DNA of 64,000 nt, taken from positions 50,260 through 114,259 of the IMG/VR virus record IMGVR_UViG_3300010885_049703. One strand, written 5' to 3'. The notes under the pieces were generated by a model. That model saw only the letters and a list, made by a program, of their open reading frames with translations, made no database searches and was not told the DNA's origin. A program made the position numbers and the translations under genes. This stretch comes from a virus. Positions 21,817 to 39,766 of the stretch are shown piece by piece (positions within the stretch are counted from its first letter, which is position 1; the number at the start of each line of letters is the position of its first letter).

Positions 21817-21820
21817 CATG

Positions 21821-21843
21821 AAAAAGCCCGCCGAAGCGGGCTT
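21821..21843 (-). terminator. Intrinsic terminator after tmRNA
   Basis: AAGCCCGC-TTCG-GCGGGCTTTTT. Confidence 0.9.
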
Positions 21844-21844
21844 A

Positions 21845-22140
21845 CTATTTTGGGTTACAAGGCATAGTTGCCCCGGGGATTACGCTGCGAGAGCGAAAAC
21901 CTCGTCGTTAGCTGCGTTTGCAGTTACTAGTTTGCTTGGATTACGTCCATCGCCTGGCGTGTTGCCTTCTTTGCTATCTCACCCTGTCGAAGCCAGGTCT
22001 GGCCCATCAGAAACATACTTCGTCCTGCAGTACGGTCCTTTTCACAAAGAGTCGCACGGTCTGCAAATATGTTTCTGGTGGACCAGGTGGGAGTCGAACC
22101 CACGTCCAGAATGCCTTTACTCCAAAGGAATTACAACAAT
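21845..22140 (-). ncRNA. ssrA: Circularly permuted two-piece tmRNA; tag ANAANDEVFALAA*
   Basis: Acceptor piece (T-arm GTGGG-TTCGACT-CCCAC, then CTGGTCC-ACCA ending at 22076) precedes the coding piece starting GGGCCAG at 22005 (G3-U70 Ala identity pair). Tag ORF 21921..21880. Outer ends approximate. Confidence 0.92.
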
Positions 22141-22153
22141 TCTTAATAGTCGC

Positions 22154-22576
22154 TTATTTATTTTGTGGTTGATAATCCACGTTGGGCATACTATACAATA
22201 GAAAATTGTGACTGACTGCATCAAATCTAATCTTGAACATGCAGACTCCCGGCTCGTCAAGGTAACCATAGCTGCGCTTTATGCCTCCACGTTTTAATCT
22301 ATAAACGCAAAAATGATCAAGGTCTATCAACGGTTCACCGCCTAACTCAATCAGTTCCACAATCACTGCGCTGTCTGTGTCTGTTCTTTCTATTACTTCT
22401 ACACCTACACTTGCAATAGTTGTGACATCATGAACAAAGTCAAATCGTACCAGGGCAGGCTCAACTTGTTGACTAGATACCGGGTCTCCCAATATCTGCC
22501 AACGTATGGCATTGCCTTTAGATCTGATGTATAACGAAAGATTTCTTTGATTTCTTGGCTTCAATGTATTGTTCAT
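22154..22576 (-). CDS. Hypothetical protein
   Basis: Protein-like ORF downstream of the radical SAM gene; start uncertain. Confidence 0.55.
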   Translation of the reverse strand: MNNTLKPRNQRNLSLYIRSKGNAIRWQILGDPVSSQQVEPALVRFDFVHDVTTIASVGVEVIERTDTDSAVIVELIELGGEPLIDLDHFCVYRLKRGGIKRSYGYLDEPGVCMFKIRFDAVSHNFLLYSMPNVDYQPQNK

Positions 22577-24065
22577 AAACTTCTTGTTGTTCGCGCAGCA
22601 TTCTATCAGCTTCTTGACCATCGCGGTCACCAAATCCTAGTTCGTGTTGTAATTCTAAAAAGCGCCGATATCGATCAAATCGTCTTTCATAGGTATTGTC
22701 TGGATTAGTTGGTGTACTCCAAAAAATATGACTCCATCCCTTGACCACATTCTCTCTTTCAAAATGATAATGATCACGCAATCTACTATCATTGGTTAGT
22801 GGTACTTGATCACCAAGAGTAAATGGCGACGAGATGGCTACACTCAATAATCCATCGTTTGCCCAGTGCCGATAACGACGCAACAAATTCAATGTTTCTT
22901 CAAAGTCTTCTTCAGTTTCCATTGGATAGCCGGCCATGAACAACCATACTTGTTTTATACCATTGTCATGCAATTGATGCGCAGTATAATCAATGTCAGT
23001 ATTGCTGAATTTTTTACGCATGTCATACCGTATACGTTCACTGCCGCTTTCTACTCCAATTATCCATTCAGAACATCCTGCTCGCCCTGCCAGTTCAAAG
23101 TCTCGAGGAGGTTGATTTTCTTTACCTCTAAAAATTGCATAACCGCTGTAACGCAATGTACGTGGCAAGTGATCTGCAAGATATTGATTCATTTTACGGT
23201 AGTTTGGTATGCTGCCGTTGATCAAGTTACCACTGAATCTAAAAAAGTCTATGCCTGTCCGATGATAACTTTTGATCATTTCTTCGGCCAACAGTTCACC
23301 ATCTTTGAAAATATATTTGGGCCAAAGATGTTCTACATCACAAAAGGTGCATTTTCTAACACAACCTTTGCTGTCTGTGATCAGCAGATATCGATCACTA
23401 GGATTAAATCTTTGATAGATATCAAAGTCGTAGTTGTCCCAATCAGGAATAGGCACTGCATTTAAGTCTTGACTGGTTTGTGGTGGCGAGTCAACTATAC
23501 CATACAGATCTTGTTGTATGACATCAATGATAAATGATTCAGCGTCACCTGTCACTACACAGTCTATCATGCCATGGTCTACTAGAAACCTAGCTCTTGA
23601 TCCTGTGGCATGAGTATCTCCAGTGTATTCACCTTGAGTTAAAATTTCTAGCCCGCGACCTCCGGCTAATATTTTTACTCCAGGAAGCCAGCGTCGAATG
23701 CTGTAACACATCAAGGTCAGATATGTTTCACTCATGACACTAAACACGCTCAATCCAACAATATCAGGATTGTATTTTTGTTTTATACCAATAAGTTTTT
23801 GTTTGTTCCATTTGAGAACATCAATCAGCACTCTTCTTGGTAGTTTACGATCAGGATTTGGGCCTTGACTGATATAAAAAAGCAATTCAGGCCAATAAGG
23901 TTTGTCCACAAATTCAGTTACAAATTCTGCAGCAAGATCCATGGGTACAGCACTTATGCCGGCTTTGTTTAAACAGGCACTGAGCAAAGCAGGAGCTGTG
24001 GCAGGCCAGCCTGGGGTCTGATAGGGTAGACTAACAATGACTATGGTGCGTTTATCAGTTGGCAT
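22518..24065 (-). CDS. B12-binding domain radical SAM protein
   Basis: DIVGLS, GDAE, GCVRKCTFC, GVESGS, GYPMETEEDF; start MPTDK at 24065. Confidence 0.9.
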   Translation of the reverse strand: MPTDKRTIVIVSLPYQTPGWPATAPALLSACLNKAGISAVPMDLAAEFVTEFVDKPYWPELLFYISQGPNPDRKLPRRVLIDVLKWNKQKLIGIKQKYNPDIVGLSVFSVMSETYLTLMCYSIRRWLPGVKILAGGRGLEILTQGEYTGDTHATGSRARFLVDHGMIDCVVTGDAESFIIDVIQQDLYGIVDSPPQTSQDLNAVPIPDWDNYDFDIYQRFNPSDRYLLITDSKGCVRKCTFCDVEHLWPKYIFKDGELLAEEMIKSYHRTGIDFFRFSGNLINGSIPNYRKMNQYLADHLPRTLRYSGYAIFRGKENQPPRDFELAGRAGCSEWIIGVESGSERIRYDMRKKFSNTDIDYTAHQLHDNGIKQVWLFMAGYPMETEEDFEETLNLLRRYRHWANDGLLSVAISSPFTLGDQVPLTNDSRLRDHYHFERENVVKGWSHIFWSTPTNPDNTYERRFDRYRRFLELQHELGFGDRDGQEADRMLREQQEVYEQYIEAKKSKKSFVIHQI

Positions 24066-24236: not shown

Positions 24237-24310
24237 TGGAGCGGGGTACGAGAATCGAACTCGTTTAACCAGCTTGGAAGGCTGGGACACAACCAATATG
24301 CCAACCCCGC
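24237..24310 (-). tRNA. tRNA-Gly(TCC)
   Basis: Cloverleaf; CCAGC-CTTCCAA-GCTGG; encoded CCA. Confidence 0.95.
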
Positions 24311-24318
24311 ATCATCCT

Positions 24319-25161
24319 TTATACGTTTGATGCTGCGACAATATGATTATGCATGATTTCTTTTACTTTGTCAAATCTTTGATAACGATTTTGAGCACCC
24401 ATAACGACCACAGCATACGTGCGACCGTTTTGTTCAACAACTACTCCCACACAATATCCAGCTGGATTGGTAAACCCAGTTTTGCTTACCACCACTTCGG
24501 GAAAAGCCAACAGCACCATGGTATTGGTATTCGGTACATGGCTAACGTTGGTGTACGTTTTGTGTTTACGATGCACCACAGTGGTAGTTGCCAAATCTTG
24601 ATAGGTTGAAATTCTACGTATGATTTGATATCCATATGCTGCCTCCAACATTCTCCCAACATCTTCGGCAGTACTGACATTGGTTTGAATGCGACCTGAC
24701 GGATCATCAAAGTGGGTGTTCAACATAGCCAACCGTGATGCCTTGTGGTTCATGGCATCAAGAAATGCAGTACGACCACCAGGATAATCGTGACTTAAAA
24801 ATTCTGCCACATTATTGTCACTGCGTATCAACAACCGTTGAAATAATTGTTCTCTAGTCACTAACCGACCTTGATACTGCACGGTCTGTTGAAGATTGGT
24901 GTTGCCGTCAAGGCTTACCATTGCAGTCATTAACTTAGTCAAACTGGCCATTGGCCTTACCAGTTGAGTTCCATGTCCTACGATAGGTGATTGTGTTTTG
25001 ATGTCATAGGCCCATACACTGATGGGATTCACTGTGCGAGCAGAATGATATTTTGCTTTTTTAACTGTTGCGTGATGCGAATGATGATGGTGACGTTTTT
25101 TAGCTTCAGCAGTGTTGACTAAACATGATAATGCAATGGCTATTAATAATATTTTTTTCAA
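24319..25161 (-). CDS. Peptidase S11 D-Ala-D-Ala endo/carboxypeptidase (PBP7/PbpG-like)
   Basis: Signal peptide; SLTK, SDN, KTG motifs. Confidence 0.9.
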   Translation of the reverse strand: MKKILLIAIALSCLVNTAEAKKRHHHHSHHATVKKAKYHSARTVNPISVWAYDIKTQSPIVGHGTQLVRPMASLTKLMTAMVSLDGNTNLQQTVQYQGRLVTREQLFQRLLIRSDNNVAEFLSHDYPGGRTAFLDAMNHKASRLAMLNTHFDDPSGRIQTNVSTAEDVGRMLEAAYGYQIIRRISTYQDLATTTVVHRKHKTYTNVSHVPNTNTMVLLAFPEVVVSKTGFTNPAGYCVGVVVEQNGRTYAVVVMGAQNRYQRFDKVKEIMHNHIVAASNV

Positions 25162-25222
25162 TGGGCACCTCGTCTAAATAGTTCAGGCAAAAAGCCTGTT
25201 TAATATTTAGCTGGTTTTTTTT

Positions 25223-25297
25223 TGGTCCGGCGTGCAGGAATCGAACCCACATTCTAGAGGTAGAAGCTCTATGTCCTATCCGTTGAACGAACGCCAG
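25223..25297 (-). tRNA. tRNA-Arg(TCT)
   Basis: TAGAG-CTTCTAC-CTCTA anticodon arm; T-loop TTCGATT; CCA. Confidence 0.93.
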
Positions 25298-25307
25298 TTG
25301 TTTTAAG

Positions 25308-25332
25308 AAAAAGCCCAGTGACACTGGGCTTT
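25308..25332. terminator. Terminator after dnaK
   Basis: AAAGCCCAGT-GAC-ACTGGGCTTT. Confidence 0.8.
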
Positions 25333-25336
25333 AATT

Positions 25337-27214
25337 TTATTTGCTTTCTTTGAAGTCGGCATCAACTACTGTTTCATCTGCTGATTGTGCGGACTCAGAT
25401 GCTTTGGCTTTGGCCTCAAAGATTGGAGCAGCAGCCTTGAACAATTCATCCAGACCGGATTTAATTGCTTCCAGGTCATTGCCTTGAACAGCAGTTTCAA
25501 CCGCAGTGATTGCAGTGTTGACAGAAGTTTTTTGTTCCTCAGTTAACTGTGATTCAACTTCTTTCATTTCAGCGCGAATCATATGTAACTGTGATTCGGC
25601 CTGGTTGCGTGTTTCAATAGATTCACGTTGTTTCTTATCGGCCTCGGCATTGAGTTCAGCATCCTTGATCATCTGTTCAACTTCGGCATCACTGAGGCCA
25701 GAGTTGGATTTGATAGTGATTTTGTTTTCTTTGCCGGTATTTTTGTCTTTAGCTGATACATGCATGATACCATTGGCATCAATGTCCAATGTTACTTCAA
25801 TTTGTGGCTGACCACGACGTGCTGGTGCAATGCCTTCAAGGTTGAATTCGCCCAATGATTTGTTGTACTGAAACAGTTCACGCTCGCCCTGTGCAACTTT
25901 GATAGTCACGGCAGGTTGATTGTCGTCGGCAGTGGAGAACACTTGGCTATGCTTGGTGGGAATAGTGGTGTTCTTGTTGATCAACTTAGTGAACACTCCA
26001 CCTTGTGTTTCAATACCAAGGCTCAAGGGAGTTACGTCAAGCAACAATACGTCTTTGCGCTCGCCGCCCAACACAGCACCTTGCAAGGCAGCACCTGCAG
26101 CCACTGCTTCGTCAGGATTGACATCATGTCGTGGCGCTTTGCCAAACAGTTTCTCAACTGCTTCTTGTACCTTGGGCATACGTGTTTGACCGCCAACAAG
26201 TATAACTTCATCTATGTCTGCAGCAGTGACTTTGGCATCGGTCAGGGCCTGACGGCATGGCGCCAAACTGCGTTGAATCAATTCTTCCACAAGGCTTTCT
26301 AACTTGGCACGAGTCATCTTGACATTTAAATGCTTGGGACCTGTGGCATCAGCAGTGATATAAGGCAAGTTTACATCAGTTTGTGCGCTGTTTGACAATT
26401 CAATCTTTGTGCGTTCAGCAGCTTCTTTGAGACGCTGCAGGGCCATCACATCGGCCTTGAGATCAACCCCGGACTCTTTCTTGAACTCGTCAACAAGATG
26501 ATCCATGATACGTTGGTCAAAGTCCTCACCACCTAGGAATGTGTCACCATTGGTTGACAACACTTCAATTTGTTTGTCGCCGTCAACGTGGGCAATCTCA
26601 ATAATTGAGACGTCAAATGTACCACCACCTAGGTCATACACAGCAATCTTGCGATCGCGTTTGTCTTGTTTGTCCACGCCATATGCCAAGGCCGCAGCAG
26701 TTGGCTCGTTGATAATGCGCAACACTTCCAGGCCTGCAATCTTACCTGCATCCTTGGTGGCTTGACGTTGACTATCGTTGAAGTAAGCCGGCACAGTGAT
26801 AACTGCCTGTGTGACTTCATGGCCAAGATAATCTTCTGCAGTCTTTTTCATCTTACGCAATACTTCGGCTGAAATTTGCGGAGGTGCTAGTTCTCGATCG
26901 TTAGCGCGAACCCAAGCATCGCCATTGCTGGCTTCCATGATTTGATATGGCATGAGGTCAATGTCTTTTTGCACAGCTTGTTCTTTGAACTTACGTCCAA
27001 TCAAACGCTTGGCTGCATAGATTGTATTCTTGGGGTTTGTCACTGCCTGACGTTTTGCCGGTGCGCCAACTAACACTTCGGCGTCGGTGTAGGCAACAAT
27101 TGATGGCGTAGTACGTGCGCCTTCTGAATTTTCAATTACTTTTGGGGTTCCATTTTCTACAACAGCCACGCATGAGTTGGTGGTTCCGAGGTCAATACCT
27201 ATAATTGTGCTCAT
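25337..27214 (-). CDS. dnaK: Hsp70 chaperone DnaK
   Basis: [25 protein letters not shown]; start MSTIIG at 27214 behind SD AAAGGAG. Confidence 0.98.
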
Positions 27215-27219
27215 TGTTT

Positions 27220-27271
27220 TCTCCTTTGAAGTAAGCAAGATTTTGCAAATGCCCTGTCGGCACATTTACAA
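27220..27271 (-). promoter_or_regulatory. Candidate ROSE-like RNA thermometer in the dnaK 5' UTR
   Basis: 5' hairpin, then UCUUGCUU pairing with AAGGAGA (SD) with a bulged G. Confidence 0.55.
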
Positions 27272-27304
27272 GTAATTATTTATTTCACATTATAACACAC
27301 TTAG

Positions 27305-27379
27305 TGCCCCTGCTCCGAGTCGAACGGAGATAATTTTCCCTTTTGAGGAGAACGACTTTACCAATTTGTCCACAGGGGC
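27305..27379 (-). tRNA. tRNA-Leu(CAA), short variable region, CCA not encoded
   Basis: GCCCCTG/CAGGGGC acceptor stem; TTCTC-CTCAAAA-GGGAA; 6-nt variable loop. Confidence 0.85.
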
Positions 27380-27383
27380 ATGT

Positions 27384-27620
27384 TTAGTTTGACCAGGTCA
27401 GCATGAATAGAGTACGATGTTCATTCCAGCGGAATGCCACACCTATGTTATACAATATTTCACAGTCATCATACGCCCAAACACTGTATCTTGGGCCTAT
27501 GCATTGTTTGAGCCACTCTTCAATAGAATACACTCCCTGGATCCAATCTACTTGGGCATTGCCAAGTACGGGCCAAGGAACAGTTGCATGAAATTGGAAT
27601 CTATGCCAGTCCACTAACAT
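27384..27620 (-). CDS. Small hypothetical protein, 'F.L.W' family
   Basis: Ends FRWNEHRTLFMLTWSN; TAAATA-N5-ATG. Confidence 0.7.
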   Translation of the reverse strand: MLVDWHRFQFHATVPWPVLGNAQVDWIQGVYSIEEWLKQCIGPRYSVWAYDDCEILYNIGVAFRWNEHRTLFMLTWSN

Positions 27621-27643
27621 GCAAATATTTATTTTATATCCCC

Positions 27644-27892
27644 TTATTTTTTGTTCATTCTTTCACGTTCAAGTTGTTCTTGATAGAGTTTTTCCTCTGC
27701 GTCATCCTCGGCTAAAATTCCAGCACGGCGCTCTTCGTCGGTTTCTATCTGATCTACATTGGCATTTAATTTTTTGATATCTTCTTCAATTGCATGCTGG
27801 TCACTGTGATCCCCGCGTAGTTTGGACATTTCTCGTTCATACCGTGTTACAAGGCTAGGTTTAACATGTTGCCTTATCCAATCAGTTGGCAT
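27644..27892 (-). CDS. Hypothetical coiled-coil protein
   Basis: Start MPTDW at 27892 behind CAGGA. Confidence 0.6.
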   Translation of the reverse strand: MPTDWIRQHVKPSLVTRYEREMSKLRGDHSDQHAIEEDIKKLNANVDQIETDEERRAGILAEDDAEEKLYQEQLERERMNKK

Positions 27893-27910
27893 GACAATTT
27901 CCTGGTTATT

Positions 27911-27984
27911 TGGCTCCGATGGACAGAATCGAACTGCCACTCACGGTTTTGGAGACCGTTGCACTGCCATTATACTACACCGGA
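27911..27984 (-). tRNA. tRNA-Trp(CCA)
   Basis: ACGGT-CTCCAAA-ACCGT; CCA end. Confidence 0.95.
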
Positions 27985-28673
27985 ATTACTATAGTTCTTA
28001 CAACGTAATCAGCAAACTCTTGATGCGCGGACTCGTCAAAATGCATACGGCCGGTGGGAGTAAATTTTTGTTCAATGCACCAATCTAAAAATACCGGGGC
28101 AATCCAATCATACCTTTTTAAAACTGCTGCGTCATCAATGGGCCAGAAACTGTCTATGTTGATAACTTTGATGCCGGCATAAATTGCAAGTTGATTTAAT
28201 GTGACAATATTTTTTATTTTGTTTAATCTTCCCACTACAGGATCAGTGGCAAACACTATCCAGTGATTTAGATATTTCTGATATAACTTGCGTTGATCAA
28301 TCCATTGGTAGCGTTTTTTAACGACTTTCTTGCGTCCTTCTCTCACAACATCATCTGGTTCAGTGCGCAACCATCCTTCTAGTCCTGCTGCCAACGGCAA
28401 CCATTGTTGGTTTTCTTGCGAATAGATTTCTGAACGATCACATCCAGTCAAGCAGGCAATTACAATGTCATTGCTGGATAGGGATGACAGTTCTCTTTCA
28501 AAAATCCTAAACATAGCATCATTGCTACCTCCGGCAATGGCGTGATTTAGGGGCCGATATCCTAGACTCTGTGCAATTTTCACAGCATAGCTGTGAGAGT
28601 AGTTGTATTGATCGTCGCTGCTGATTTCCGAACCAGCAGCATGACTACAACCCAATATCAATGCCTGTTTCAT
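27975..28673 (-). CDS. SGNH-hydrolase-like phage protein
   Basis: GCSH..G, N.A..GGSN, C-terminal HF...H. Confidence 0.65.
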   Translation of the reverse strand: MKQALILGCSHAAGSEISSDDQYNYSHSYAVKIAQSLGYRPLNHAIAGGSNDAMFRIFERELSSLSSNDIVIACLTGCDRSEIYSQENQQWLPLAAGLEGWLRTEPDDVVREGRKKVVKKRYQWIDQRKLYQKYLNHWIVFATDPVVGRLNKIKNIVTLNQLAIYAGIKVINIDSFWPIDDAAVLKRYDWIAPVFLDWCIEQKFTPTGRMHFDESAHQEFADYVVRTIVIPV

Positions 28674-28699
28674 ATGCCTACTTAGCTGTGAACCAGATA

Positions 28700-28867
28700 T
28701 TAATGCACTGCTTCTTTTGTATTCACTTCACACTCAACTACCCAATTATTGAATTGTGTGAATGTACTTACTTCTACCCCGAGTCCCACAGCTTCGTTGA
28801 CAAAATGTTGCAACAACGAATTATACAACTCATCGGGCATTGTATCTTTGGCAAATTTAATTTTCAT
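28700..28867 (-). CDS. Small hypothetical protein (55 aa)
   Basis: Not in track: MKIKFAKDTMPDELYNSLLQHFVNEAVGLGVEVSTFTQFNNWVVECEVNTKEAVH. Confidence 0.6.
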   Translation of the reverse strand: MKIKFAKDTMPDELYNSLLQHFVNEAVGLGVEVSTFTQFNNWVVECEVNTKEAVH

Positions 28868-28892
28868 TGTCAATCCCTAGATCTAAAGTAAA

Positions 28893-29097
28893 ATGCTCTG
28901 CGTCCCGCGGCGGTAATTATACTGTGTCAGTAAACATGTCCTCTTTCAAGGGGAATACCTCTACAGCCTCCACCCGCTCCACGACCGGGACCGTTCTCGC
29001 ATTGCCAGCGCCGTTTCGGTTGGAACGGTACCACCCGTGCTTGTCATAGCACTTCTCATCCTCCGGGTCAGAGTATCCAGTGACGCTGGAACGGCGC
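28893..29097 (-). ncRNA. Unassigned GC-rich structured RNA fused to the 3' end of tRNA-Ser
   Basis: High GC relative to flanks; many complementary segments; no credible ORF. Confidence 0.6.
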
Positions 29098-29185
29098 TGG
29101 CGGAGAGTATAGGATTCGAACCTATGCGCCACTTTCGCAACGACAGTTTAGCAAACTGCTGCCTTGACCACTCGGCCAACTCTCC
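29098..29185 (-). tRNA. tRNA-Ser(GCT)
   Basis: GCAGT-TTGCTAA-ACTGT; long variable arm; GCCA end. Confidence 0.95.
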
Positions 29186-29202
29186 ATAAATCTAGTTGCT
29201 CT

Positions 29203-29306
29203 ACCATATTGAAACACACTATACAACAGGTTTAGGTCTGCTTCTATATCCTGTCACGGCGTAGTATGAAGTTATCTCTAGACCTTGGCCGTAATGTGCT
29301 TTAATA
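29203..29306 (-). ncRNA. Fold-back trailer of tRNA-Glu with an internal pseudoknot-capable core
   Basis: 19-position imperfect closing stem (one mismatch) and four internal helices. Confidence 0.5.
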
Positions 29307-29381
29307 TGGTACACGGTAGGGGAATCGAACCCCTCTTCCATCCGTGAAAGGGATGTGTCCTAACCGATAGACGAACCGTGC
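29307..29381 (-). tRNA. tRNA-Glu(TTC)
   Basis: CATCC-CTTTCAC-GGATG; CCA. Confidence 0.95.
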
Positions 29382-34845: not shown

Positions 34846-35015
34846 TCTTTACCCCAATTGATTTTCAACCATACACGCTCGTGTATATAATGTGCCAGGG
34901 TCATAAAAATATTGATTATAATTGCACCACTTAATCCGGTCCATGCTGCAGTAATCAATGTTGCCACCACACGCCAAGTGATTGCTCTTACTATTGTTCT
35001 TTTGTGTAATTCCAT
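34821..35015 (-). CDS. DUF2061-like small membrane protein (tandem paralog)
   Basis: RTIVRAITWR ... HYIHERVWLKINWG. Confidence 0.8.
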   Translation of the reverse strand: MELHKRTIVRAITWRVVATLITAAWTGLSGAIIINIFMTLAHYIHERVWLKINWGKEWKQNNEQ

Positions 35016-35884
35016 CAAGTTCCCCAGGCGTTGCGCCAGATATCTACTTGTAATCTAGGACTGTATCTATAGCCACGCTTCATTGCCAACTCAGCTACCT
35101 GCGGCACATTGAAGTTGTATAAGTCAGCAACGCCGCCCGTGGGCATCAAATACACAGGACCACCAAAGCCAGCTTTGCGGAATTGATACACCGCTTCGTC
35201 AACATCTTTCAAATCATCATCAGTGGACACAACAAACTTGAGATAGGTCATGCCCACCATCTCATAACTTTTTACAACTTCGGGACGTATAGCATCTTCC
35301 CAACGCTCTCCCGAGCATGGTAGTTTTGCACTGACACTGAAAGTCAAACGATCGTAATCTCTGCCGTGTCTAGTGAATTCTTCAAACAGGTATTCTCTAA
35401 CATCTTCATGCAAAAACTGAGTACCATTGGTTTCAAATGTTATGTTACGCAAGCCTTGTTGGCGACATTTTTCGATCAGCTTGGGATATTCAACTTGATA
35501 GCCCAGCAATGGTTCACCGCCTGTGATCACCAGGTGAACATCGTCACTGATGTTGTCTGGACTCCATTTGTTCTTGGGAATCATGCCATGCATACGATCA
35601 GCGATTTCATCCAAGGTCATAAACGGTGACAGATGTTTGAATGCCGGATGCCATGACGCATAACTGTCACAGCCTGTTCGTGCCAGCGGCAAGTCGTTGT
35701 AGGTTTTGTAAAGATGTACGTCGGCAGCAATTTCGTCGGGTTCAGTGGTCTTCTCACCACGCGGTAAGCCAAATCCACGACACTGAAAGTTACACCCAAA
35801 TGTACGCATGAAAACGCTGGGCACACCAGCCCAACGTCCTTCACCTTGTAGACTATAAAATATTTCAGCTATTTTAAGTTGCAT
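35015..35884 (-). CDS. queE: 7-carboxy-7-deazaguanine synthase (radical SAM)
   Basis: EIFYSLQGEG, F.RTFGCN, ITGGEPLL, ETNGT, YSPRLQ. Confidence 0.93.
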   Translation of the reverse strand: MQLKIAEIFYSLQGEGRWAGVPSVFMRTFGCNFQCRGFGLPRGEKTTEPDEIAADVHLYKTYNDLPLARTGCDSYASWHPAFKHLSPFMTLDEIADRMHGMIPKNKWSPDNISDDVHLVITGGEPLLGYQVEYPKLIEKCRQQGLRNITFETNGTQFLHEDVREYLFEEFTRHGRDYDRLTFSVSAKLPCSGERWEDAIRPEVVKSYEMVGMTYLKFVVSTDDDLKDVDEAVYQFRKAGFGGPVYLMPTGGVADLYNFNVPQVAELAMKRGYRYSPRLQVDIWRNAWGT

Positions 35885-35908
35885 GATATTCCTTGAAAGT
35901 TTTGTGCG

Positions 35909-35937
35909 AGTATAGCACAAGAAATAAAATTAGTCAA
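35909..35937 (-). promoter_or_regulatory. sigma70-type promoter of queE
   Basis: TTGACT-N17-TATACT. Confidence 0.7.
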
Positions 35938-36304
35938 TGTCTTTTAAGAAAGGTTTTAATTTGGGAGGTTTCCAACCTTCAGGTTTGAGAACTTTGCCAT
36001 CCTTGCGCTTGTTGACCTTACCAGTTTCTGAATCAATTTTGGCAAAGTTTGTTTGCATGACTTCGTTCCAGGCAGCTTCGGCATCTACTCCCATGCTGTG
36101 CAATGCTCCGGTGGTCACTACCAACAGATCAATCAATGCATCCAATTGTTCCACTCGGTCTGCTGCCTGAACAGCTTCTTTGAGTTCATGCCATTCTTCT
36201 TTGATGAGATTCACATACATACGATACTGCTTGGGTTTGAATTCATCTACTGTTTGATCACATGCCAGCATGAATCGTTTTTGATCTTCAAAAATATTTG
36301 TCAT
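35930..36304 (-). CDS. MazG-like all-alpha NTP pyrophosphohydrolase
   Basis: LIKEEWHEL, DALIDLL, EV..TN.AK, DGKVLKPEGW.PP. Confidence 0.88.
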   Translation of the reverse strand: MTNIFEDQKRFMLACDQTVDEFKPKQYRMYVNLIKEEWHELKEAVQAADRVEQLDALIDLLVVTTGALHSMGVDAEAAWNEVMQTNFAKIDSETGKVNKRKDGKVLKPEGWKPPKLKPFLKDID

Positions 36305-36849
36305 TTAGTCCACCATTGTTCCCAGGGAAATACAATCCATTGCGGATCTGCCGCTTTATTAATGTTACATGCGGTATAATTAACATCAAGTTTGCTTTCA
36401 CTTGATTCGTTGTCAACTAGTGTGGCCACACGTACATTTGTGCCCCATATGTGATTCCACCTATCATGATTGGGCAAGCAACCGCTGGGCCAATCTTGTT
36501 GAATCCAGTTCAGTGTGGCACCGGTGTCGTTGATATCATCAACTATGAGTATGTTTTTGGCGTTGATACTATAATCAAATTCTGCCAACAACTGTTCATC
36601 CTTGGGAACGTATCCAAACGCATCTTCGGCCATCCATAAATTGCTTTCCGATTCATTGCCATCGCGCAGACTCACTTTGAGTGTCTCCATGCGCACTCCC
36701 AGGTATTGACTGATGAGATTGGCCGGAACAAGTCCACCACGAGTAATACCCACTACATAGTCAGGTCGCCAGCTGTCGTTGTGAATCTGTCTGATAATCT
36801 CCTGTGTGAAGTTTTCTACATCACGCCAGGTGTAGTATACCCGTTTCAT
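36301..36849 (-). CDS. Type I phosphoribosyltransferase (purine PRT-like)
   Basis: GITRGGL.PA, LIVDDINDTGAT, WIVFPWE. Confidence 0.9.
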   Translation of the reverse strand: MKRVYYTWRDVENFTQEIIRQIHNDSWRPDYVVGITRGGLVPANLISQYLGVRMETLKVSLRDGNESESNLWMAEDAFGYVPKDEQLLAEFDYSINAKNILIVDDINDTGATLNWIQQDWPSGCLPNHDRWNHIWGTNVRVATLVDNESSESKLDVNYTACNINKAADPQWIVFPWEQWWTK

Positions 36850-37634
36850 AGTTTCCTTGCTTTGATTAATAAATGCCAACCCAGATATTCTTTCACTGCA
36901 TCACGCATGGTATCACTCATGGCAGCAAACCAAGGTTCCAATTCATAGCGACCTTCGCGGTATGCTGGTATGTTATACATAAAACAGTGATCCTGCCTAA
37001 TACGTTCTATTTCAAACTGACCATTGAGCATCTGATAAATTTCACCTCTAGTAAATGCTTCGGCGTATGGACATTCAGCCTGTGCTTCAAACTGATCCAG
37101 CCCCTTTTGAATCATTGCATACTTCCAGGAGTTTTTAGCATACACCATAAAACGGAACTCGCCCCCAGGTGCCACTAAACTGTGAATCTCTTGAATGTGT
37201 TGTGCAATATTGGGTGAATGATGTATGACACCATAACTGTACACAAGATCAAACTTGCCAAGATTTTCTATTGCTGTTGCATCATCTGGATCAAGTAAAT
37301 TGATATTGCGGAAATCGCCATGTAAATCTAGAGTTTGGAATCGGTCACGACAGATGTTTAAACTAGCATCACTGATATCAATGCCTGTGTATTCAGCACC
37401 GTGACGCACAAACTGTTCAGCGTCAGTTCCAATACCACACCCAATCTCCAACACCCGCTTGCCTTGCCAGCGATGAAACTGTGCAAAGTCAAGTATGTGT
37501 GGCTCTACACGATAACGACGTGCAGTGACTTCTTCAAAGTACTCTACCGAACCCAAGGGTCGTTGACTGTGACGAATGTTGCAGGGTTGGCGATCCCAAT
37601 AGGATTTTATTTTTTCTTCAAGTTGTTGAGACAT
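36846..37634 (-). CDS. Class I SAM-dependent methyltransferase
   Basis: VLEIGCGIGTD, GIDIS, FDLVYSYGVIHH, PGG. Confidence 0.92.
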   Translation of the reverse strand: MSQQLEEKIKSYWDRQPCNIRHSQRPLGSVEYFEEVTARRYRVEPHILDFAQFHRWQGKRVLEIGCGIGTDAEQFVRHGAEYTGIDISDASLNICRDRFQTLDLHGDFRNINLLDPDDATAIENLGKFDLVYSYGVIHHSPNIAQHIQEIHSLVAPGGEFRFMVYAKNSWKYAMIQKGLDQFEAQAECPYAEAFTRGEIYQMLNGQFEIERIRQDHCFMYNIPAYREGRYELEPWFAAMSDTMRDAVKEYLGWHLLIKARKL

Positions 37635-38484
37635 TAACTGATCCTGATGACATATTGACTTCTCTTTTAGTTGTAGTCATTTGCTTGTTGATGTCGTTAG
37701 CTTCAAGTTTTTCCCAGGGATTCTGTTGGTTGATCTTGACATTCTCCCAAAAAGTAGTATCTATGCCCTTTGATTTCAAATAGCCGGCAATTTTTTCAGT
37801 GTCTGACATTCTATGATTAAACCATTTGACACTATGAAAATCTTCGGGACTGTCAGGCTTACCCTCCAGCATTGGACGATTCTTAAATGTTTCATCATGG
37901 TTGTTGCCGGTGAGATCGTACCGATCATGCTCAACCCACACTGGAATACGCTCCAGGATGTCCACCATGTATGCGATTTGACTCATCCAAGCGTCACTGA
38001 TCTGATGTGGACTCATATATCCAAACATATCAAGCCAGTCTCTGGGAATAATTGGAAAAATACTGTAAGGATGTTCTCTATGAGTATGCACAGCCAATAA
38101 CTTGAATTGACCTTGATACTTCATAATTTCTACATTCCAGCCTTGACTTTGCATCACAGCATCATCATTCCAGAACATTAACCATGCGGCATCGCTGTTT
38201 TTAGCTAGTTCTGTAACGTACTCATTAAGTCTAATATACCCCATGGGTTCAAAGCTCATTGCAGTATAATGTACACCTCGATCATCTAACAATGGTTGTA
38301 AAGATTCTTCCCAGTGTTTGATACCAACTTCGTCATCGTCATCAAAGCCCAGGATAATTTGTATTGTTGATAGGTCTTGAACACGATTAATTAAACTCAT
38401 TATACTGCGTGTCAGCGTCATTGTGCGCCCGCGAGTGGGCAACAAAACTGCTATGTCATACTCATATGAATGTTGTTTTTCCAT
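37618..38484 (-). CDS. GT2-like (GT-A) glycosyltransferase
   Basis: VLLPTRGR, FDDDD, FWNDD, SDAW. Confidence 0.75.
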   Translation of the reverse strand: MEKQHSYEYDIAVLLPTRGRTMTLTRSIMSLINRVQDLSTIQIILGFDDDDEVGIKHWEESLQPLLDDRGVHYTAMSFEPMGYIRLNEYVTELAKNSDAAWLMFWNDDAVMQSQGWNVEIMKYQGQFKLLAVHTHREHPYSIFPIIPRDWLDMFGYMSPHQISDAWMSQIAYMVDILERIPVWVEHDRYDLTGNNHDETFKNRPMLEGKPDSPEDFHSVKWFNHRMSDTEKIAGYLKSKGIDTTFWENVKINQQNPWEKLEANDINKQMTTTKREVNMSSGSVNVSTT

Positions 38485-38498
38485 TTATTCCTCAAATA

Positions 38499-38996
38499 TT
38501 ATGCAAATAAGTCTTCGTTCCAATGTCTATGTCCCTCGCGGAAAGCCATGTTACTTTGTGTTTCACGTACTTCTACTCGATAACACCACAAACGTTCTGC
38601 TTCACCAGGTCCCCACATATCTGGAATATACACTCCATTGACATACTTGTAAAGCATATCGGCTAGCCCCTCGCAGCCTAATCGTGGAAGAATGGTGAGT
38701 TTGGCCATGTTACGCTGTTGTAACAGTTTAAATGTCTCCAATTCTGGATCATCTTGTGCAACTAACAAGGTGTGATCAAACTGATCTTCTAAAATCTTCT
38801 TTAGTTCTTTGAGTCCACCGTAGTCAGCAGCCCAATTGCGCACATCTAAGTTATCGGTACCAAAGTAAAACTTCATGCTGAATGCATAGCCATGTATTAG
38901 ATTGCAGTGGCTATCAGCACGCCATTGCCGGTAGGCACAGGGAAAGGCATTGTGGTATTCTTTGGTACTAGTATAATTGTATGTAACAGATTGCAT
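38499..38996 (-). CDS. queD: 6-carboxy-5,6,7,8-tetrahydropterin synthase
   Basis: SHCNLIHGY (CxxxHGx), DYGGLKELK, FDHTL, VEVRET. Confidence 0.9.
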   Translation of the reverse strand: MQSVTYNYTSTKEYHNAFPCAYRQWRADSHCNLIHGYAFSMKFYFGTDNLDVRNWAADYGGLKELKKILEDQFDHTLLVAQDDPELETFKLLQQRNMAKLTILPRLGCEGLADMLYKYVNGVYIPDMWGPGEAERLWCYRVEVRETQSNMAFREGHRHWNEDLFA

Positions 38997-39002
38997 TGTT
39001 TT

Positions 39003-39065
39003 CTCCTATAAGTTAATATAGGCTTGCAGAGTTTGTATAGCGGGATGAATGCTCTAAAGGCCGCT
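39003..39065 (-). promoter_or_regulatory. Candidate variant preQ1-I-like riboswitch with SD-sequestering hairpin
   Basis: P1 AGCGG/CCGCU; pseudoknot UAGAG/CUCUG; A-rich L3 AUACAAA; CCUAUA/UAUAGG hairpin over the SD; TATAAT at 39076-39081. Confidence 0.65.
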
Positions 39066-39076
39066 GTTGAAAACTA

Positions 39077-39766
39077 TTATATATGGTTTTCTCGGACTTT
39101 GTCTACATTATAGGTAAACACAGTTAGATATTTTTTATAATGATGTTCGCTGCTACTGCAATGGAGTTGAGTACGATCCCAAGAAATCACATCGCCAAGA
39201 TTCCAATCAACGATTTGTTCTATAGTCAGTCCGTGTAAATCTTCTATGGGCATATAGCTCAGATAGTCATGATATGTTTTTTCATCAAATTGATGATCGT
39301 TTATATTAACCACTTGACTATAATCAGCAACAGTACCCTGAGCTAATCCCAAAACATTTGATGCACGATCAATGGATTGTTTGAGATCAAGTCTTGAAAA
39401 CTTAGTACTGGCACCAAACCAATAGTTATCAAAAAACACGGTTGATGCTTTTGGGGAGAAATCCAACGGTATTAAAAAAGATGGTCCCAAACATTCAGCA
39501 GACCACTCACGATGTGAATCCACATGTACTTTTTGATTATACGAACGTTGATAGAAGAAAATTAATTCATCGACTGCCCAATTAAAATTTGCCAACTTGT
39601 TGATAATATCAGTAACTATTTGTTGTGGCCATTCGTCAACATCCCAGTGAGGATGCTTGCTTGACATAGTGGGACGATGATCCCAAGGACCATCTTCCTG
39701 ATCAAAATAATTTTTAAGACTAGCAATATCTTCCGGGGATACTATATCCTTGTACACTTTAGCCAT
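39077..39766 (-). CDS. Fe(II)/2OG oxygenase-like protein
   Basis: HVD ... WDRTQLHCSS ... K. Confidence 0.6.
   Translation of the reverse strand: MAKVYKDIVSPEDIASLKNYFDQEDGPWDHRPTMSSKHPHWDVDEWPQQIVTDIINKLANFNWAVDELIFFYQRSYNQKVHVDSHREWSAECLGPSFLIPLDFSPKASTVFFDNYWFGASTKFSRLDLKQSIDRASNVLGLAQGTVADYSQVVNINDHQFDEKTYHDYLSYMPIEDLHGLTIEQIVDWNLGDVISWDRTQLHCSSSEHHYKKYLTVFTYNVDKVRENHI

Follow-up and report, generated by a model that had tools for sequence, protein, structure and literature searches.

The phage queD leader in the window, by which we mean the whole 64,000-nt stretch of viral DNA analysed here, carries a compact RNA element (39068-38994, minus strand) that is strongly supported as a phage-specific riboswitch candidate related in shape to the class I preQ1 (preQ1-I) riboswitches. 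Homologs in other viral contigs share a conserved H-type pseudoknot, are almost exclusively attached to queD, and possess a pseudoknot helix whose formation is mutually exclusive with sequestration of the ribosome-binding site (RBS). We consider it probable that the element, at the 5' end of the queD transcript, is a cis-acting, ligand-governed RNA switch in which formation of the knot corresponds to the translational ON state.

RESULTS

Layout of the queD leader

The genes surrounding the queD leader are all encoded on the minus strand, to which the coordinates below refer unless a plus sign is given. An 80-nt gap (39076-38997) separates an upstream 229-aa open reading frame (ORF), for which no family match was found, from queD (38499-38996), which encodes a 165-aa member of the 6-pyruvoyl-tetrahydropterin synthase family (PTPS, PF01242). 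The initial annotation had quoted the leader correctly, and the minus-strand RNA reads exactly so from AGCGG to the ATG. Upstream lies a sigma-70-like promoter (39076-39105) composed of TAGACA (39105-39100), an 18-nt spacer and TATAAT (39081-39076), an 11/12 match that ranked first among sigma-70-like promoters in the 2.5 kb scanned; its -10 box contains the stop codon of the 229-aa ORF. Because this promoter ends at 39076, transcription would be expected to begin 2-4 nt upstream of the first helix, P1, and the predicted start at about 39069-39067, a few nucleotides before AGCGG, is plausible on promoter position. Homologous leaders display two promoter styles upstream of P1, namely a sigma-70 type (TTGACA-N17-TATAAT) and a T4-late-like ATAAATA box lacking a -35 element; found in different phages, both end about 8-12 nt upstream of P1 and precede the same leader.

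The 5' strand of P1, AGCGG (39061-39065), pairs with CCGCU (39039-39043, the 3' strand, assigned from covariation in homologs) across a loop of 17 nt in this reference copy and 13-19 nt in the family. The loop comprises L1 with a variable part, CCUUUAGA (39053-39060), in which the position of C39060 is variable and the following CU is conserved; the 5' strand of the second helix, P2, which reads GCAU (39049-39052) in the family register according to covariance model (CM) alignment, covariation and a duplex permutation test; and L2, UCAUC (39044-39048), whose final nucleotide, C39044, is invariant and lies directly 5' of the P1 3' strand. Beyond P1 come the 13-nt L3, AUACAAACUCUGC (39026-39038), and the P2 3' strand AAGCC (39021-39025), whose last two C's form the start of the 5' arm of a hairpin, CCUAUA (39022-39017)/UAUAGG (39010-39005), that sequesters the Shine-Dalgarno (SD) sequence and has a 6-nt loop (39005-39022 overall). 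The SD, AGGAG (39007-39003), and the queD start codon, ATG (38996-38994), complete the leader (38994-39007). The SD-sequestering hairpin was present in both the minimum free energy and centroid folds of the reference leader. The single-sequence fold as a whole gave z = -1.65, which is not significant alone, and the case therefore rests on the comparison of homologs. At the element, neither a U-tract nor any site resembling a Rho-independent terminator was found.

Distribution in viral and cellular genomes

Homologs were gathered through a QueD-anchored search of viral contigs, from which the best 80 of more than 588 relatives were used, and through a gene-independent DNA-pattern scan combined with a P1-variant scan, which yielded about 200 further loci; copies of the element in viral contigs number about 270. 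Almost all of the best 80 of the more than 588 QueD relatives have a conserved block that starts exactly at P1, and a covariance model, R1, built from the MAFFT alignment A2, detected the element in 78 of these 80 queD-anchored loci. The same model found a single copy in the window and a single copy in the whole 114-kb record, and exactly one copy per record was present in 29 of 29 large records, which span 96-365 kb and include four that are 98% complete or better. This restriction to one copy per genome led us to reject a generic phage promoter, terminator or repeat.

Across 185,579 bacterial and archaeal species, each represented by one genome, the pattern matched three times and only one match scored with the model, that one (locus L205) lying on the contig of a metagenome-assembled genome (MAG). 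A bacterial origin was rejected on the grounds of this lone real copy. Searching cultured phages with blastn recovered no copy of the element. The nearest cultured queD genes belong to Acidovorax phage ACP17 (53% identity) and Xanthomonas phages X1 and PhiXhv-15, in all of which queD adjoins the upstream ORF and the element is absent. Elsewhere in the window, the exact 13-nt L3 consensus, UUACAAAUUCUGC, recurs at 23918-23930 (+), where no hairpin flanks it (CM E = 0.52), and is probably a chance match.

Covariation of two crossing helices

The five base pairs of P1 proposed in the initial annotation, along with its G-C pair at the putative pocket, were borne out by the homologs. P1 was 98.6-100% paired across them, its top two G-C pairs were invariant, and compensatory variants were abundant, including AGAGG/CCUCU, AGUGG/CCACU, ACCGG/CCGGU and UGCGG/CCGCA. 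When loci were chosen solely for an altered middle base in the 3' half of P1, all 78 carried the matching change in the 5' half.

The second helix proved to be a different one from that originally drawn. The UAGAG/CUCUG pairing can form in the reference copy, where CUCUG (39031-39027) falls within L3, but at least 4 bp of it are possible in just 28 of 132 unique homologs (21%), and it shows no covariation, as YUCUGC stays invariant while the loop varies; it is possible, judging from the reference sequence, that this pairing represents a lineage-specific alternative. The P2 of the family joins a central segment of the loop, 4-8 bases long and stopping about 5 nt short of the P1 3' strand, to the nucleotides that directly follow UCUGC. 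Compensated versions include GGCA/UGCC, GGCG/CGCC, GGUG/CACC, GGCUU/AAGCC, GGCAU/AUGCC, AGACAU/AUGUCU, GACGC/GUGUC, AUGGCAU/AUGUCAU and AUGACUGU/ACAGUCAU. The reference copy has a weak P2, in which GCAU (39052-39049) opposes AAGC (39025-39022) as U-A, an A-A mismatch, C-G and G-C.

Quantitatively, the queD-anchored alignment A3 had 86.3% of cells paired and compensatory changes in 8 of the 12 P1 and P2 pairs, with a covariation score of 0.193 vs 0.083 for shuffled alignments (0/500 as high) and 0.03-0.08 for slid controls, and alignment A6, representing the P1-variant clade, had 90.4% of cells paired, compensatory changes in 7 of 7 P2 pairs and a score of 0.288 vs 0.113 when shuffled (0/500 as high) and 0.02-0.07 when slid; CM-guided alignments are biased towards the P2 that they model, and both the MAFFT-only seed alignment A2, which agrees on P1 and P2, and an alignment-free test, in which cognate loop/tail duplex energies were better than permuted ones (0/10000), concur with them. 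P1 and P2 thus both covary and cross each other, as in an H-type pseudoknot, so that the covariation envisaged for phage queD leaders in the initial annotation is present with a different P2. G-U pairs are frequent (A3 and A6), which indicates that the structure is strand-specific and resides in the sense RNA.

Two other registers were considered. A P2 shifted by -3, which would draw in the GC of CUGC, could form in some clades but not in type B loops (described below), and pairing of CUGC with the P1 5' strand was rejected because CUGC remains constant while P1 is AGAGG, AGUGG or ACCGG.

Conserved unpaired nucleotides

Two loops hold the invariant unpaired bases. L2 has the consensus UCA(N)C, and its final C, although left free in the search pattern, is invariant in 132 sequences, in agreement with the original assignment of a C just before the P1 3' strand; the base preceding it is U in 79%, C in 13% and A in 8%. 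L3, whose A-rich character had likewise been recognised and whose WUAnAAA beginning runs throughout the family, has the 13-nt consensus W-U-A-n-A-A-A-Y-U-C-U-G-C, in which U2, A3, AAA, UC and GC do not vary across the 132 aligned sequences. By comparison, the first base after the P1 5' strand, described in the initial annotation as an altered pocket nucleotide with C in place of U, is U in 37%, C in 33% and A in 30% of 178 unique copies, and this near-equal usage means that the position is unconserved rather than specifically altered. A tRNA-sensor reading, with CAY, UAY and AAY in L2 and L3 as Q-decoded codons, was dropped, since CAA, UAA and UAG variants are common.

Three expression platforms behind one aptamer

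The same aptamer is followed by three types of expression platform, in all of which the P2 3' strand serves as the anti-RBS strand. In type A (88 unique copies including the reference), the P2 3' strand ends in two bases that also open the hairpin CCUAUG..CAUAGG, the SD being its 3' arm, and G-C to A-U and wobble variants occur; these homologs confirm the SD-hiding CCUAUA/UAUAGG hairpin noted originally. In type B (32 copies), the P2 3' strand reads AUGUCRUC and can base-pair with the start region, GAUGGCN, which the loop strand mimics, and in type C (12 copies) it pairs with GGAGAC(A). Cognate anti-RBS/RBS duplexes averaged -6.33 kcal/mol vs -5.59 kcal/mol for permuted ones (0/5000). When P2 was imposed in a partition-function model of the nearest-neighbour kind, the scope of which stops short of pseudoknots and kinetics, the unpaired probability rose from 0.22 to 0.58 for the SD of type A and from 0.06 to 0.56 for the AUG of type B. 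Because P2 and RBS sequestration exclude each other in every type, knot formation is predicted by this modelling to free the RBS and turn translation ON.

Most type A copies (e.g., L008:2963-3003 and L043:2961-3003 in alignment A5) also have an SD-hairpin loop that reads TGcTATAAT, with TTTACA inside L3 17-18 nt upstream, constituting a near-consensus extended -10 promoter within the element. By its sequence, it might serve as an additional promoter that escapes regulation, or make the polymerase pause in a sigma-dependent manner; the reference copy has no good embedded -10.

Association with queD and its pathway

About 97% of the copies lie directly upstream of QueD/PTPS genes. A single homology group accounts for 207 of 214 unique complete downstream ORFs, and each of its seven subfamilies has a representative that matches PF01242 (7/7); the exceptions to queD adjacency include a methyltransferase gene followed by queD. 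In carriers whose folE and queE lie at a distance of more than 50 kb, queD is still accompanied by the element. Five large carriers (the records of L017, L102, L153, L285 and L124; 300-365 kb, four of them complete) encode QueD together with FolE (5/5) and QueE (5/5). Pfam searches of these five detected TGT/DpdA in 0/5 and QueF in 0/5 and gave weak or partial matches to QueC at most, and in the window's own record, which is about 33% complete, QueC and TGT were not detected. With QueF and TGT not recognisable and QueC weak at most, preQ1 is not the obvious product, and the earlier premise of a phage with no obvious way to make preQ1 holds more widely, within the sensitivity of Pfam.

Downstream of queD (35015-38484), the window encodes a glycosyltransferase-like protein, a class I methyltransferase, a phosphoribosyltransferase, a MazG-like pyrophosphatase and QueE. 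The genes from queD to QueE apparently form one unit, and the set suggests tailoring of a deazapurine at the nucleotide level. The folE gene is preceded by a perfect TTGACA-N17-TATAAT promoter (41831-41803, within the region 41831-41762), and its short leader contains a candidate 4-bp hairpin, AGAC (41794-41791)/GUCU (41784-41781), with a loop, AUCCAC, complementary to the SD GGA. The window also contains a permuted tmRNA of betaproteobacterial type and five tRNA genes (21819-22238 and 24240-29381). These hint that the host is a betaproteobacterium, which agrees with Acidovorax phage ACP17 having the nearest cultured queD.

DISCUSSION

Proposed switch and possible ligands

Riboswitches in general combine a covarying aptamer, a position in 5' leaders, association with genes of one pathway and variable expression platforms, and all of these features are found in the present element. 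In a translational ON riboswitch, a ligand-stabilised aptamer withdraws an anti-RBS strand and thereby frees the RBS. We propose a comparable mechanism for the queD leader, which would fold into the 5-bp P1, a loop bearing the P2 5' strand, L2, L3 and the P2 3' strand. As long as the knot is absent, the P2 3' strand would pair with the SD in types A and C and with the region around the start codon in type B; upon formation of the knot, this strand would be withdrawn, the RBS released, and queD translation turned on. A small ligand would govern knot formation, as suggested by the invariant unpaired bases and by a modular aptamer joined to varied platforms. The likeliest ligand would be a guanine-like molecule, a 7-deazapurine or a pterin, stacking against the invariant C at the junction of P1 and P2. 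ON switches are unusual on biosynthetic genes, and one placed there would need a ligand of the precursor or signal type. We tentatively suggest, at somewhat lower confidence than for the switch itself, a phage-only riboswitch class in which a 7-deazapurine or pterin intermediate other than preQ1 (for instance CDG, CPH4 or H2NTP, which FolE makes), or a guanine-pool signal, would activate QueD translation.

The same pseudoknot might instead be an operator for a trans-acting factor, such as a small RNA (sRNA), QueD itself or an RNA-binding phage protein that represses or activates translation, or it might be a leader that works independently of any ligand, by stabilising the 5' end, enhancing translation or timing co-transcriptional folding. 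We regard this as unlikely, though it deserves serious attention: phages such as T4 use translational operators, the computed data fit a small-molecule and a protein partner alike, and a hairpin at the extreme 5' end is typical of mRNA stabilisers. However, the unpaired bases that never vary are concentrated where P1 meets P2, one and the same aptamer precedes seven divergent QueD subfamilies with differing promoters and three platforms, and such modularity, coupled to strict linkage with one gene at one copy per genome, is the usual signature of a riboswitch. As for a stabiliser in particular, invariance in L2 and L3 and a covarying P2 would be unneeded.

Relation to preQ1-I and other riboswitches

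The switch that we favour resembles the preQ1-I riboswitches (types I-III), examples of which are those of B. subtilis queC, T. tengcongensis, C. antarcticum and E. coli. The element was compared with the defining features of this class as summarised in PMC11625349, among them a conserved C before the P1 3' strand that occurs as UC in type I and as AC in types II and III (PMC11625349). Both are small H-type pseudoknots that lead a gene of the 7-deazaguanine pathway, with a short P2 and control through RBS accessibility; in both, P1 has five base pairs and a conserved closing G-C that forms the floor of the pocket, the C before the P1 3' strand is invariant, occurring in the element mostly as the UC of type I, and L3 is A-rich and begins with UA, the version here being WUAnAAA. 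In the AGAGG clade, P1 and AUAAAAA are the same as in the B. subtilis aptamer quoted in the initial annotation. These similarities speak for a divergent but true class I preQ1 riboswitch, binding preQ1 or preQ0 through the invariant C in the manner of B. subtilis and T. tengcongensis, and we nevertheless hold such a reading to be improbable.

The searches and the details of the pocket region both argue against it. Rfam 15 returned no family match at E<=10 for the reference, 20 homolog loci or an AGAGG-clade copy, the closest in appearance to the B. subtilis aptamer. The preQ1 model RF00522 (gathering threshold 39 bits), whose use had been proposed at the outset, gave no match at E<=10 in the 301-nt reference search, in the 20 homolog loci or in the 106-nt AGAGG-clade search, and on the whole 114-kb record it found nothing at the site, its best hit being 9.1 bits elsewhere. 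A weak 17-bit match to the Rfam freshwater-2 family was set aside, since it derived mainly from SD similarity and did not recur in homologs. In preQ1-I, U6 of L1 reads N9 of the ligand and the last adenine of L3 (A29/A30), adjoining the P2 3' strand, contacts it, whereas in the element the base equivalent to U6 is unconserved and the 13-nt L3 ends in an invariant UCUGC; the loop between the P1 strands is also longer. Translational preQ1-I members place SD bases within the P2 3' strand and are repressed by their ligand, whereas the P2 3' strand of the element is anti-RBS and does not contain the SD, so that its wiring is the opposite, with ON logic. Finally, the element is confined almost entirely to uncultured phages and is essentially absent from bacteria, and its carriers, complete ones included, have no recognisable QueF or TGT and QueC-like fragments that are weak at most, leaving preQ1 production without recognisable genes. 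Of the original mapping onto preQ1-I, the H-type knot, P1, the invariant C and the A-rich L3 have thus survived, and the P2 assignment and the altered pocket nucleotide have not. The element resembles a knot of preQ1-I type in its working and may descend from one, but it falls outside RF00522.

Among other riboswitches, SAM-II/SAM-V, the latter known from marine metagenomes, guanidine-III and fluoride fall into a similar size class and have a similar pseudoknot topology, but none was matched in Rfam, and their conserved nucleotides and gene associations are unrelated. The adenine add riboswitch has the same ON logic that we infer here, a likeness of mechanism only, as fold and ligand differ. 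We found no description of the motif in the literature.

Conservation at the DNA level, as an embedded promoter (TTTACA-N17/18-TGcTATAAT) or an operator, is highly improbable even though a near-consensus extended -10 spans L3 and the SD-hairpin loop in most type A copies, because that -10 is missing from types B and C and has no good counterpart in the reference copy, and because such a signal fails to explain the invariant UCUGC "spacer," compensation in two crossing helices, the G-U pairs, or its occurrence once per genome and only at queD.

Implications

Phage-native riboswitches are rare, and we know of none that controls phage DNA modification. At about 55 nt and with hundreds of covarying examples, the candidate switch at queD is unusually tractable for the study of a new ligand class and of how an aptamer fold is re-purposed, as it unites a familiar scaffold with different conserved bases in the pocket region and the opposite output logic. 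The carriers have no recognisable QueF or TGT and weak QueC-like matches at most, which points to unexplored chemistry. If the proposed switch is real, it would be a virus-encoded metabolite sensor with activating logic on a preQ1-I-like scaffold; QueD, as first committed enzyme in a putative DNA-hypermodification route, would come under switch control, and large freshwater phages would thereby meter entry into 7-deazaguanine synthesis.
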